Below, piece by piece: positions 52,001 through 56,321 of a stretch of 64,000 bases of DNA. The position numbers are program-made. The stretch lies in assembly GCF_002854065.1 (NCBI RefSeq), contig NZ_CP024153.1. One strand, 5' to 3'. This stretch comes from Escherichia coli (GTDB taxonomy: Bacteria; Pseudomonadota; Gammaproteobacteria; Enterobacterales; Enterobacteriaceae). Every line of letters begins with the position of its first letter. Positions within the stretch are counted from its first letter, which is position 1.

Positions 52001-55000
52001 CCAGGCCGTGTGATTTCAGGAACGACTGCCATTCATGGCTTGTGTACTGACTGCCCTGATCCGAATGAACCAGCACCTGTTTTTGGGGATTACGCCGCCA
52101 TACAGCCATCAGCAGTGCGTTCAGGACAATGTCTTTTGTCATCCGGGACTGCATGGACCAGCCGATAATTTTGTGTGAGAACAGATCAACAACCACGGCA
52201 AGATACAGCCAGCCTTCGTGGGTCCTTATGTAGGTTATGTCCGTTACCCAACGCTCATCCGGAGCATCCGGATTGAACTGTCGCTGAAGCCTGTTGGGCG
52301 ACACGATACTGGCCTCGCCTTTACGAGCCCGCGGGCTCCGGTATCCGACCTGAGCCTTTATCCCGATACGTTTCATCAGTCGCCAGACTCTGTTCACTCC
52401 GCACTGTTGCCCGCTGTCCCGCAGATCTAAATGGATTTTGCGATAACCATAGACGCATCCCGATTCCAGCCAGAACTGTTTAATCTGTCCTGTCAGTCTC
52501 AGGTCTGCCTGATGGCGTTGTGAATGCGGCTGCTGAAGCCAGGCGTAAAAACCACTGGGATGAACATCCAGCACCCGACAGAGCAGGCGAACAGGCCAGC
52601 AACAGGTGTTTTCACGGATAAAGGCGTACCTCAGTCGGACAGCTTTGCGAAGTACGCCGCTGTAGATTCAATCTGTCAATGCAACACCCCTTTCAATTAT
52701 CTCTTTCGGTGTTTTGAACTTCAGTGTCTTTCTCGGTCTGTTGTTTAGCTGAGCAGCAACCAGATCTAGTTCATGTTGAGTATATTGGGCAAGACATGTC
52801 TTTTTAGGAAAGTACTGCCGAATTAGCCCATTTGTGTTCTCATTTGTTCCCCGCTGCCAAGGACTCTGAGGATCGCAGAAGTAAACTTTAACGCCGGTGC
52901 TGACAGTAAATTCTAGATGTCTGGCCAGTTCCATTCCTCTGTCCCATGTCAGTGATTTTCTGAGTTCTGACGGTAAACTCAGGAATTTGTCGGTAAGAGC
53001 CTGATTTACTGAGACAGAATCTTTGCCCCTGAGTCTAAGGATGATCGTATAACGTGATTTTCGGTCTACAAGTGTGGCTATATGAGAGTTTTTTGTACCT
53101 GAGACTAAATCGCCCTCCCAATGCCCCAGAGAGCGTCTGTTATCGATATTTCGGGAACGTTCGTGAATTGGTGTTCCGTTCACTATGTTAATCGTACCTC
53201 TTTCGCCTTTGCGGGTATGACGCCTGCCATGGCGAAGGCTATGCGACCGTCGCAGATGCTGTATATTCAGGTGGTGTAGCGCTTCACGGCTACGAAAGTA
53301 CAGCGTTTTATAAATTGTCTCAGGTGATATTCGCAGCGTTTTTTGACGTGGTTTTGTTCGCCTTAACCATCCTGATATTTGCTCTGGAGACCATTTCATC
53401 TCCAGCTTTTCCAGAACAAGCTTTCGCAATGGTAAATTTTGATCCAGTAAGCACGGTTTTGGCCTTTTCGCCATTCTGTTGGCTCGGTTATTAGCATCAA
53501 CAGCTTTGTAATAGCGTCTGCCCCGATTACGCTGAACTTCACGTGAGATCGTCGAAGGACTGCGATTCAGCGCAGTAGCTATCGCACGAATGCTCATTTT
53601 GGCTGACAAACCAGCTCGTATCTCCTCGCGCTCAGACAGTGTCAGGTGAGCTACAGCCCGCTTACGCTCATGGGGTTTTATGCCGCCAGTATCCCTTAAC
53701 ATAGTGAAGATCGTTCCGGGTTTTGAACCCAGGATATTCGCTATTTCACTGAAGCCTGTTCCGTTCTTCCATAGTTCAAAAACAGAGGCTTTTTCCTCTG
53801 CTGTAAATGTTCATCTCATTCAAAAAACCTCCGCAACCCCATGTTTTCACATAACTGTTGCGTTGACCAATTGAATCTACAGGGCGGATTTCCACACAGC
53901 ACCGGCGCCCGGCAAGGTGGGCCGATTTCCACACAGCACCGGTGCGCGGCAAGGTGGGCCGATTTCCACACAGCACCGGCGCCCGGCAAGGTGGGCTGAT
54001 TCCCACACGGCACCGGCGCCCGGCAAGGTGGGCGGATTTCCACACAGCACCGGCGCGCGGCAAGGTGGGCTGATTCCCACACGGCACCGGCGCCCGGTAA
54101 GGTGGGCGGATTTCCACACGGCACCGGCGCCCGGTAAGGTGGGCGGATTTCCACACAGCACCGGCGCCCGGCAAGGTGGGCTGATTCCCACACGGCACCG
54201 GCGTCCGGTAAGGTGGGCGGATTTCCACACAGCACCGGCGCGCGGCAAGGTGGGCCGATTTCCACACGGCACCGGCGCCCGGCAAGGTGGGCGGATTTCC
54301 ACACGGCACCGGCGCCCGGTAAGGTGGGCTGATTCCCACACGGCACCGGCGCCCGGCAAGGTGGGCTGATTCCCACACGGCACCGGCGCCCGGTAAGGTG
54401 GGCGGATTTCCACACAGCACCGGCGCGCGGCAAGGTGGGCTGATTCCCACACGGCACCGGCGTCCGGTAAGGTGGGCGGATTTCCACACAGCACCGGCGC
54501 GCGGCAAGGTGGGCTGATTCCCACACGGCACCGGCGCCCGGTAAGGTGGGCGGATTTCCACACGGCACCGGCGCCCGGCAAGGTGGGCTGATTCCCACAC
54601 GGCACCGGCGCCCGGCAAGGTGGGCTGATTCCCACACGGCACCGGCGCCCGGTAAGGTGGGCTGATTCCCACACAGCACCGGCGCCCGGCAAGGTGGGCT
54701 GATTCCCACACGGCACCGGCGCCCGGCAAAGTGGGCGGATTTCCACACAGCACCGGCGCCCGGTAAGGTGGGCGGATTTCCACACAGCACCGGCGCCCGG
54801 CAAGGTGGGCTGATTCCCACACGGCACCGGCGCCCGGTAAGGTGGGCGGATTTCCACACAGCACCGGCGCGCGGCAAGGTGGGCCGATTTCCACACAGCA
54901 CCGGCGCCCGGCAAGGTGGGCGGATTTCCACACAGCACCGGCGCGCGGCAAGGTGGGCCGATTCCCATATCGACATGTATGTAGCTTGTGTTATCCGTGG

Positions 55001-56321
55001 ATTGTGCAGCTCAGCTGGTCGTATGGCGGAGTGTCCCCCGTAACCGGCCGCGTGCGGCCGCTAACGCGCAGTACGGCCCCCCCCGTGGGGGACGTGCGGC
55101 AGCTGCGTGGCGGTGAGCGGGATTAGGGCTTTGCAGCTACCGTGTTAAGTTCCCTGGTGTCGCTGAAAGAGTTGATGAACATCCCCCTAAGCGTCAGCAG
55201 CAAGCTGCCGCCGCTAAGTCCCCGGAAATCACGCCCTTTACGTCGTAAACGCCGTAAAGCCCGCTCACCGGGGTTAAAAGGGATTACTTTGACTTCTTCA
55301 TTGCTGTTCGCGAGTTAAGGCTAATCAGGGCAGGGGGTAGGGTGGCAGAATTTATAGCCCGGCAACGGGCTACGCCGGGCTTTCGGCGCCATTTTACAAC
55401 ACAGACACATGTAACCTCATCTGGCGCCTCCATGCCGCTGACGCGGCATTCAGAAGCTTCCCAATGCTGTAGGTTTTAACATCTGCTTTATGTCAGAAGC
55501 GGATGGTTCAGAAGCCAGCAGTTTCCAATAACAGATATAGTATCGAACCGGATACTCATGATTTTTGGGTGACGCTGCCAACTTACTGATTTAGTGTATG
55601 ATGGTGTTTTTGAGGTGCTCCAGTGGCTTCTGTTTCTATCAGCTGTCCCTCCTGTTCAGCTACTGACCGGGGTGGTGCGTAACGGCAAAAGCACTGCCGG
55701 ACATCAGCGCTATCTCTGCTCTCACTGCCGTAAAACATGGCAACTGCAGTTCACTTACACCGCTTCTCAACCCGGTACGCACCAGAAAATCATTGATATG
55801 GCCATGAATGGCGTTGGATGCCGGGCAACTGCCCGCATTATGGGCGTTAGCCTCAACACGATTTTACGTCACTTAAAAAACTCAGGCCGCAGTCGGTAAC
55901 CTCGCGCATACAGCCGGGCAGTGACGTCATCGTCTGCGCGGAAATGGACGAACAGTGGGGATACGTCGGGGCTAAATCGCGCCAGCGCTGGCTGTTTTAC
56001 GCGTATGACAGGCTCCGGAAGACGGTTGATGCGCACGTATTCGGTGAACGCACTATGGCGACGCTGGGGCGTCTTATGAGCCTGCTGTCACCCTTTGACG
56101 TGGTGATATGGATGACGGATGGCTGGCCGCTATATGAATCCCGCCTGAAGGGAAAGCTGCACGTAATCAGCAAGCGATATACGCAGCGAATTGAGCGGCA
56201 TAACCTGAATCTGAGGCAGCACCTGGCACGGCTGGGACGGAAGTCGCTGTCGTTCTCAAAATCGGTGGAGCTGCATGACAAAGTCATCGGGCATTATCTG
56301 AACATAAAACACTATCAATAA

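Follow-up and report, generated by a model that had tools for sequence, protein, structure and literature searches.

The 597-bp segment at 54971-55567 of the window (the 64,000-nucleotide stretch of Escherichia coli contig NZ_CP024153.1 analyzed here) is most probably a composite, non-coding relic of replication regions from two plasmid types, IncN and IncFII(K), that have recombined with each other. An earlier note, made from the sequence alone, had described it as a GC-rich orphan without ORFs, sandwiched between IS-associated breakpoints, and had offered three guesses as to its nature: a remnant of a non-coding RNA gene, an element end or an origin-associated sequence. The features described there exist, yet the segment is a recognizable composite; the observation is partly confirmed, and the three guesses taken together are partly supported. 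The location is as stated, between the repeat array, which ends at 54967, and IS1, whose left inverted repeat begins at 55568. No ORF of at least 60 aa starts inside the segment, the longest being of 58 aa (55142-55318, plus strand) and the next of 49 aa, and both of the hairpins quoted, GGCCGCGTGCGGCCGC at 55046-55061 and GCCCGGCAACGGGC at 55357-55370, are present. The GC content is 55.3% overall versus 50.7% for the window; "GC-rich" is appropriate for the first third only (63% in the first 200 bp), the middle standing at 55% and the last 200 bp at 48%. The term "orphan" is mistaken, since 95 PLSDB plasmids carry the 597 bp at an identity of at least 99%, and parts of the segment are present in 3661. 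The segment is an ordinary one, occurring without change in some hundred resistance plasmids of known sequence. A match to a known element, which the note had said would count against its reading, exists insofar as each half corresponds to a known element of plasmid backbones.

The IncN-derived left part

The segment is preceded by an array of 37-bp IncN-type iterons, the RepA-binding repeats, at 53882-54967 on the plus strand, with no adjacent repA. TRF counts 29.4 copies, and a pattern search for the iteron gives 29 matches within the array versus none expected. The array is homologous to those located downstream of IncN repA in R46 and in the IncN plasmid pEC2341_KPC-2 (locus L002). In the literature it is named "iteron I", and the IncN1 module to which the name belongs is described as "ΔrepA-iteron I-CUP6-resP" (PMC6052338). 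BLAST and the three-way alignment A1 identify the DNA which follows (54968-55136, plus strand) as the distal (5') part of a CUP6-type "conserved upstream repeat" of IncN1. Identity of this left part to the pEC2341_KPC-2 CUP6 (L002 3991-4117 and 4174-4230) is 92-95%, and positions 54986-55136 share 80-89% identity with the four full CUP copies of R46. Homology to L002 continues across the boundary between array and CUP at 92% identity, and the order and orientation, from iterons to CUP6, are the same as in L002 and R46. Judged by these alignments, the left edge of the segment is the native IncN continuation and no breakpoint; of the IS-associated breakpoints proposed for both sides, only the right one (IS1) stands, while the left is the natural passage from iterons to CUP6 seen in true IncN plasmids.

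The CUP6 part contains the hairpin at 55046-55061, the motif GCTAACGCG at 55060-55068 and a second hairpin, CCCCC..GGGGG, at 55077-55091, and it terminates in the block GAGCGGGATTAGGGCTTTGCAG (55115-55136). In folding, the region of the first hairpin does not stand out from shuffled sequence (z -1.2 and +0.3), and "cluster 1" (55020-55140) was accordingly rejected as an exceptional fold; its conservation reflects homology alone. The CUP elements of pKM101/R46 were reportedly described by Delver and Belogurov in 1997. The likeness to the IncN1 CUP6 of these plasmids, which lies between iteron I and resP, consists in the homology of 54968-55136, its placement directly after the iterons and its native orientation. 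The window differs in retaining only the distal ~170 bp, with an internal deletion of 56 bp (a GC-rich block of other CUP copies, missing at 55076|55077), and in having neither the ArdK/promoter half nor resP. Alignments A1 and A3 show CUP homology stopping at 55136: the promoter-proximal half, with its ArdK-binding site and -35/-10 boxes, is absent, and the stretch TTGACT...GATAAT (A3 columns 400-470) is replaced by IncFII(K) DNA. A tblastn search with ResP detected no resP near the segment, its sole match being weak and at 3016-3141, and a resolvase pseudogene (a resP remnant) was rejected on this negative result.

The conserved hairpins, together with the promoter and ArdK site borne by the CUP repeats of IncN plasmids (PMC5027574, PMC5371602), might suggest a small non-coding RNA gene, remnant or active, or a CUP-type ArdK-regulated promoter. 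This is very unlikely, with the promoter-proximal part of the CUP gone and IncFII(K) DNA in its place. None of 4227 Rfam covariance models matches 53500-56500 on either strand at E<=1, which leaves the guess of an RNA gene remnant unsupported. Moreover, neither a sigma-70-like promoter nor an intrinsic terminator was found within 54968-55567, and the only site returned by the scan lies inside IS1.

The recombination junction and the IncFII(K)-derived right part

Columns 201-278 of alignment A1 place the recombination junction at 55136|55137, within 55128-55142. The sequence to its left is CUP6-specific (ATTAGGG), that to its right IncFII(K)-specific (CTACCGTG), and the switch occurs inside a 10-bp block common to both parents, GGCTTTGCAG. 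By BLAST, homology to the IncFII(K) locus L005 starts at 55114. The right part is 93% identical to L005 5001-5387, which begins 760 bp past the stop codon of the IncFII(K) repA. Its first portion (55137-55300, plus strand) is non-coding and comprises, in alignment A2, an IncFII(K)-specific spacer and a diverged second copy of "cluster 1" of the type found in the S. houtenae plasmid; this spacer is 93% identical to L005 5024-5190, downstream of repA. The last portion (55463-55503, plus strand) is the tail of the IncFII(K)-derived sequence, and homology to both L005 and L007 ends at 55503. In IncFII(K) replicons the native site of 55137-55503 is ~0.75-1.1 kb downstream of repA, beyond oriR and the Ter sites, and Y. 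pestis pCD, the S. houtenae plasmid and one from Pantoea have more distant matches at this offset.

The 58-aa ORF lies largely in this spacer, and its annotation in one record (NZ_CP075481.1) as the "hypothetical protein" WP_213159972.1 would make it a small protein. The four homologues checked all have an in-frame stop at codon 10, and L005 has a frameshift; the ORF is unannotated in the other identical copies among the matches listed, and a Pfam search of five short ORFs, this one included, gave nothing meaningful. The ORF was therefore rejected as a gene because of the stops in its homologues, and a small protein is to be considered highly improbable.

Past the IncFII(K)-derived tail, homology searches indicate ~70 bp of unrelated intergenic DNA (55497-55567, plus strand), cut by IS1. 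Outside this plasmid lineage these last ~70 bp have matches only at 81% identity, in five plasmids, for example at L018 3001-3070, next to a truncated gene for a FAD-dependent oxidoreductase. A native continuation past 55503 was rejected, since the match is to a distant, unrelated locus only. The IS1 copy (55568-56336, plus strand), recognized by its terminal sequences and its insA/insB ORFs, lacks a 9-bp target duplication, its flanks reading tgatttttg on the left and cattatcct on the right. The adjoining IS1 is what would favor reading the segment as a mobile-element terminus. Both halves, however, match replicon backbone DNA rather than IS or transposon ends, the left edge continues the IncN array naturally, and no terminal inverted repeat was found inside the segment, the sole IS end being that of IS1 from 55568. 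The "element end" of the earlier note is thus unsupported, and an element terminus, rejected for want of terminal repeats, has next to no probability.

A conserved three-hairpin element

Between the spacer and the tail, at 55301-55462 on the minus strand, a covariance model, nhmmer and folding delimit an intact post-origin element of the IncFII family, consisting of three hairpins and a CTG block. On the minus strand, 5' to 3', the order is hairpin III (55432-55449), hairpin II (55385-55391 paired with 55422-55428), hairpin I (55356-55381) and a "start block" (55319-55337). The start block carries CCCTG, nearly invariant in alignment A5, which in the window is CAGGG at 55326-55330 on the plus strand. 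Covariance model R1 scores the element at 126.7 bits (E 1e-33), its only strong match within the window, and nhmmer gives E 7e-34 for 55301-55462. As single-stranded DNA, the region with the second of the quoted hairpins has fold z-scores of -3.5 and -3.0 (0 and 2 of 200 shuffles). Across 29 sequences, 94.9% of cells are paired versus 26-50% with slid partners, and compensatory change is seen in six pairs and 15 cells, which none of 500 shuffles reached. Covariation is strongest in hairpin III; support for hairpins I and II comes from conservation rather than covariation, because they are mostly invariant.

Among 36 IncFII-RepA loci from GTDB genomes, nhmmer detects the element in 25, always on the repA strand and 0.66-1.0 kb past repA, and three further loci, L023, L047 and L053, are recovered by the covariance model in the same orientation, bringing the count to 28. 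The motif GCTAACGCG, which also occurs in the CUP6 part, is present in 23 of the 25 loci, and the fixed order of Ter site, GCTAACGCG and element is kept in 21. As far as sequence comparison can tell, IncFII-family replicons from many genera of Enterobacterales keep the element at the same place and in the same orientation. The window copy can be aligned over its whole length with R100 (L009 6372-6532, positions 90371-90531 of NC_002134), with the same three hairpins and CCCTG block. In the window, IncN iterons stand upstream of the element, where the native loci have oriR and Ter sites, and tblastn found no IncFII RepA in the window. The resulting well-defined model of 162 positions, supported by the structure and covering the three hairpins and the CTG block of this putative IncFII-family leading-strand start element, could be used for plasmid annotation.

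We infer that the conserved element is a putative primase-dependent priming signal, namely the leading-strand start "G site" of R1/R100. Such a leading-strand start region, with a primase-dependent "G site" downstream of oriR in R1/R100, was reportedly described by Masai and Arai in 1989 and by Tanaka and colleagues in 1994, and we take the conserved element to be this G site. The fork from oriR would unwind the element and expose a single-stranded template, the host primase (DnaG) would recognize the hairpins on SSB-coated single-stranded DNA, and a primer would then be begun at the CTG block. In R1, the leading-strand start site is separated from oriR by two ter sites (PMC10331603), and the position of the element past the Ter sites fits this layout. 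In R100 there are three candidates for the CAG/CTG start point (L009 ~6263, ~6391 and ~6431). The CAGTA beside hairpin I of R100 was rejected as the conserved primer start, since its CAG is not kept in other members of the family (A2); only the more distal CCCTG block is conserved, and the CTG adjoining hairpin I in R100 is not. Compared with the G site of R1/R100, the window copy is detached from repA, oriR and Ter sites, and any activity is putative; it is, moreover, of the IncFII(K) subtype, which unlike R100 has an extra insertion of ~190 bp between "cluster 1" and the element.

The complementary-strand origin of phage G4 (L011 3900-3998), a primase recognition site, likewise has three hairpins on the template strand, with a CTG to their 3' side. 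Its fold z-score of -4.8 is comparable to those of the plasmid elements (-3.0 to -4.3), and the likeness extends over ~10 nt of the start block: CTACTGCAAAGCC in G4 versus CTGCAAAGCC in the CUP-derived block of the window and in the family members from pCD and Hafnia. Hairpin sizes and spacing differ, however, the CTG block of the plasmid family being ~45 nt from hairpin I. The G4 origin was not detected by nhmmer at E<=10, and covariance model R1 gave only a chance-level match elsewhere in G4 (E 0.75); a link to the phage by HMM and covariance model was therefore rejected, as no overall similarity in sequence or structure was detected. The single-stranded-DNA promoters Frpo/ssi of F-like leading regions resemble the element in being structured single-strand signals with copies in leading regions, the transferred strand being the active one. 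Yet Frpo is one long imperfect hairpin which mimics a -35/-10 promoter for RNA polymerase, whereas the window element has three short GC-rich hairpins and no promoter-like hexamers.

Spread, activity and kinship of the two halves

A query spanning the junction is covered over at least 80% of its length in 761 PLSDB records. The wide retention of this iteron-CUP6::FIIK hybrid (761 plasmids) could reflect either hitch-hiking or selection. Its spread, the native order and orientation of iterons and CUP6, and an IncN RepA frame in the window that is 99.6% identical over aa 14-239 would all be in keeping with an IncN-type origin that still works, in which the IncFII-derived element serves as leading-strand start and RepA is supplied in trans, either from the truncated copy (17742-18419) or from an IncN plasmid sharing the cell. 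That frame, however, is the only IncN RepA which tblastn detects in the window; its gene lacks the first 13 codons and the native upstream region, and lies 36 kb off, beside IS elements. The identical segment copies are on plasmids typed IncFIA/IncFIB/IncX1 or IncR, not IncN, and in the IncR versions an IS5 element interrupts the hairpin element at 55406, with no evident effect. A working origin is thus improbable, though less so than the other alternatives.

Somewhat less probable still is that the segment is kept mainly with an incompatibility or titration determinant, whereby IncN RepA is bound by the 29 iterons, incoming IncN plasmids are kept out and the 600 bp ride along. The array is indeed large, well conserved and without a cognate repA, and iteron arrays are known incompatibility determinants (PMC6052338, citing Papp & Iyer 1995); yet this proposal concerns the array rather than the 597 bp, and is compatible with a composite relic. 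The relic is most likely inert in this plasmid, judging by what is lacking: no IncFII repA or oriR is present in the window, the sole IncN repA there is truncated and 36 kb away, and both resP and the promoter-proximal half of CUP6 are missing. The hairpin element, itself intact, could nevertheless serve as an opportunistic entry site for primase whenever the minus strand is single-stranded. The guess of an origin-associated sequence is, in essence, correct: the DNA that makes up the segment natively flanks two plasmid origins, its pieces being IncN iterons and CUP6 and the leading-strand start region which follows oriR in IncFII(K). As an explanation, scar tissue of plasmid cointegration matters little for this window; it is useful for annotating resistance plasmids of the IncR, F33 and tet(X4) types, where DNA of the segment stays unannotated.

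On the aligned sequences, the CUP repeats of IncN are homologous to the leading-strand start module of IncFII, and the two parents appear to have recombined because a single module is present, in homologous copies, both as CUP repeats and as IncFII start region. Further copies are located in leading regions, four in R46 and one in R100, beside oriT, with the template orientation always on the transferred strand. Each R46 copy is directly upstream of an ArdK-regulated promoter (ccgAI, ardA, ccgD, ardB). It is a tentative possibility, which we regard as doubtful, that both halves recombined as copies of one single-strand priming module, and that each CUP of the IncN leading region is a cassette of "priming signal plus promoter". 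If this were true, host primase would start complementary-strand synthesis at the CUP in the recipient, and the adjacent promoter and anti-restriction gene would be made duplex first, allowing early expression by a route other than Frpo. The placement of the CUP repeats and the oriT-side site of R100 in one family, with consistent orientation on the transferred strand, offers a testable idea of how plasmids without a primase of their own may prime the complementary strand and switch on leading-region genes.

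Composition and borders of the segment

The segment at 54971-55567 lies between an array of 29.4 copies of a 37-bp tandem repeat (53882-54967) and an IS1 copy (55568-56336), whose left end at 55568 forms its right border. It is real yet ordinary, being composed of known plasmid backbone elements which hundreds of sequenced plasmids already have, and in this sense an earlier guess of an origin-associated sequence was right. The earlier note had also called the segment a GC-rich orphan in which no ORF of 60 aa or more starts. The latter statement holds, the longest ORFs being 58, 49, 45, 43 and 42 aa, while the GC content (55.3% overall vs 50.7% for the window) is high only in the first third (63%) and falls to 55% and then 48% in the remainder. 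The segment is no orphan: 95 PLSDB plasmids carry its 597 bp at ≥99% identity, pieces of it are found in 3661 PLSDB plasmids (2502 of them from Klebsiella), and at least 80% of it is present in 72 of 5426 complete E. coli genomes, nearly always on plasmids. The annotation under these matches amounts to a single "hypothetical protein" in one record, and otherwise to no feature. The segment contains no promoter, terminator, Rfam family or conserved ORF, leaving the suggested remnant of a non-coding RNA gene unsupported, and the suggested element end fared no better. Both hairpins quoted in the note were found, at 55046-55061 and 55357-55370; the region of the first folds no better than shuffled sequence (z -1.2 and +0.3), and that of the second folds better (z -3.5 and -3.0).

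IS-associated breakpoints had been proposed for both edges, of which only the right one stands. The flanks of IS1 differ (tgatttttg vs cattatcct) and show no 9-bp target duplication, which marks the right edge as a genuine breakpoint created by an IS. IS1 also abuts a 5'-truncated IS3-family (IS911-like) transposase gene (56346-57185), which together with the missing duplication points to a stack of IS-mediated deletions. Outside its own plasmid lineage, the final stretch (55497-55567) has a single match, at 81%, beside a truncated oxidoreductase gene in 5 plasmids. Further to the right, a 43-bp repeat is present in only 4.8 copies at 57347-57553, downstream of sopB (57637-58608, minus strand), which looks like a truncated sopC centromere adjoining the IS911 fragment. 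A 52-bp-period array at 63648-63796 (2.9 copies) is built from 11-bp AGACTACAAAG-like units.

A hybrid of IncN and IncFII(K) backbones

In the IncN plasmid pEC2341_KPC-2, repA is followed by the 37-bp iterons, then by matches to 54961-55080 and 55080-55136, and then by the 3' end of a resolvase gene. The iteron-adjoining copy has been named CUP6, in a module written "ΔrepA-iteron I-CUP6-resP" (PMC6052338). Since the order of iterons and CUP6 is native to IncN plasmids, the IncN replicon continues naturally across the left edge, which is no breakpoint. In R46 the CUP6-part sequence is one of five repeats, with four full copies (23442-23658, 24783-24985, 25993-26202 and 32767-32983) and a 30-bp partial match (28019-28048); in the IncN leading region such repeats are known as "conserved upstream repeats" (CUP; see also PMC5027574, PMC5371602). 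The window CUP6 lacks a 56-bp GC-rich block present in all other CUP copies and is missing its promoter-proximal half, as well as resP next to it.

The right part (55114-55503) is 93% identical to positions 5001-5387 of an IncFII(K) locus (L005), starting 760 bp past the stop codon of its repA. Its core (55359-55456) has more remote matches in Yersinia pestis pCD, a Salmonella houtenae plasmid, a Pantoea plasmid and R100, which are equally far downstream of repA. Aligned across the junction, CUP6 reads GAGCGGGATTAGGGCTTTGCAG|GGAGGGGG, IncFII(K) reads GAGCGGGTATGGCTTTGCAG|CTACCGTG and the window reads GAGCGGGATTAGGGCTTTGCAG|CTACCGTG, therefore CUP6 extends to 55136 and IncFII(K) begins at 55137. 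On this alignment, the crossover is located within GGCTTTGCAG, common to both parents. Such a crossover was possible because the distal CUP in its full length (~330 bp) shares homology with the entire IncFII module of cluster 1, block and three hairpins.

In its native IncFII order this module follows two Ter-like sites of opposite orientation (core GTTGTAAC), and consists, in turn, of the cluster 1 hairpin (motif GCTAACGCG), the block with ..GCAGGG.. at its end and the three hairpins. IncFII(K) replicons (L005 4885-5215, and two further replicons, L019 and L043) carry a ~190-bp insertion between the first cluster 1 and the block/hairpin element, duplicating cluster 1 in a diverged form of the S. 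houtenae-plasmid type, and the ..GCAG block is thus a recurrent recombination point.

A junction-spanning query is covered to at least 80% in 761 plasmids. Two IncR-type backbones (L055, L056) contain the hybrid in the order umuD, ltrA, IS1, iterons-CUP6::FIIK, IS5, stbA; in these and in L003, grouped with them, an IS5-family element lies within hairpin II at the position equivalent to 55406, and the sequence beyond has been lost. IncR-type plasmids can thus do without the element. Unlike these IS5-cut versions, the window hybrid is intact to 55503.

The hairpin element as a putative plasmid G site

The element, three hairpins with a CTG block, has its sole copy in the window at 55301-55462 (minus strand; covariance model, 126.7 bits). 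Among 36 IncFII-family RepA loci from one-genome-per-species collections, an HMM of block and hairpins found it in 25, always on the repA strand and starting 0.66-1.0 kb past repA, and the covariance model added three loci. The exact 9-mer GCTAACGCG is present in 23 of the 25 HMM loci, in 21 of which it lies ~80 bp past a Ter-like site. In an alignment of 29 sequences, 94.9% of hairpin cells are paired, vs 26-50% with partners slid by 1-3 columns, and changes on both sides affect six pairs (15 cells), a level reached by 0 of 500 shuffles. Covariation is strongest in hairpin III (ATGCCGC/GCGGCAT, ATGCGCC/GGCGCAT, ATGACGC/GCGTCAT, ATGCCC/GGGCAT), hairpins I and II being mostly invariant with few compensated variants.

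In plasmid R1, leading-strand synthesis starts beyond two ter sites, which separate its start site from oriR (PMC10331603). Relative to the ter sites, the element is located where this R1 start lies. Masai and Arai (1989) reportedly assigned the leading-strand start of R1 and R100 to a primase-only priming "G site", ~400 bp downstream of oriR, and Tanaka et al. (1994) are said to have reported that plasmid G sites share conserved blocks and, near the primer start, resemble phage G4 only to a limited extent. In R100 the element starts ~340-400 bp beyond the ~188-bp origin, which begins at the DnaA box (L009 5848), in agreement with this picture. As in the G4 oric, the template strand presents three hairpins and then the CTG block, which in pCD, Hafnia and the window's CUP block (CTGCAAAGCC) resembles G4 CTACTGCAAAGCC; G4 itself is missed by both the HMM and the covariance model. 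By position, homology and structure, the element is most likely a member of the plasmid G-site family, an assignment we regard as putative.

Role in this plasmid and in conjugative leading regions

No IncFII RepA is encoded in the window, and its sole IncN RepA copy (17742-18419, minus strand), 36 kb from the segment, lacks the first 13 codons; the frame is 99.6% identical to aa 14-239 of IncN RepA, with the N-terminus replaced. It is followed by a single 37-bp iteron (17646-17670, minus strand), forming a second IncN replicon fragment that adjoins IS elements and matches the "truncated repA-iteron II" module of F33/IncN hybrids (PMC6052338). A 22-bp repeat (TGCGTACCCATCCACCTTTCAG) forms two short arrays at 19312-19431, beside the IncN repA fragment and IS26. 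On the simplest reading, the iteron array carries the segment along as inert scar DNA. Primase could still act on the intact hairpin element once that strand becomes single-stranded, but nothing here requires that.

The same element occurs in all IncN CUP copies of R46, at 23323-23478, 24664-24811, 25874-26021 and 27891-28030 (plus strand) and at 32962-33102 (minus strand). The four copies of the leading region share one orientation, upstream of ccgAI, ardA, ccgD and ardB, each immediately preceding a promoter and gene. A further family member lies beside oriT of R100 (NC_002134, 49796-49950, minus strand), between a DUF932 gene and an SLT transglycosylase gene, with compensated stems (GGCCA/TGGCC, CCCGC/GCGGG). 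Judging from where the relaxase genes and leading regions lie, all five copies (four in R46, one in R100) would be in template orientation on the transferred strand entering the recipient. In R46, a primer extended from the element would directly reach the neighbouring ArdK-regulated promoter and gene. This arrangement suggests that the CUP repeats are putative priming-signal-plus-promoter cassettes.
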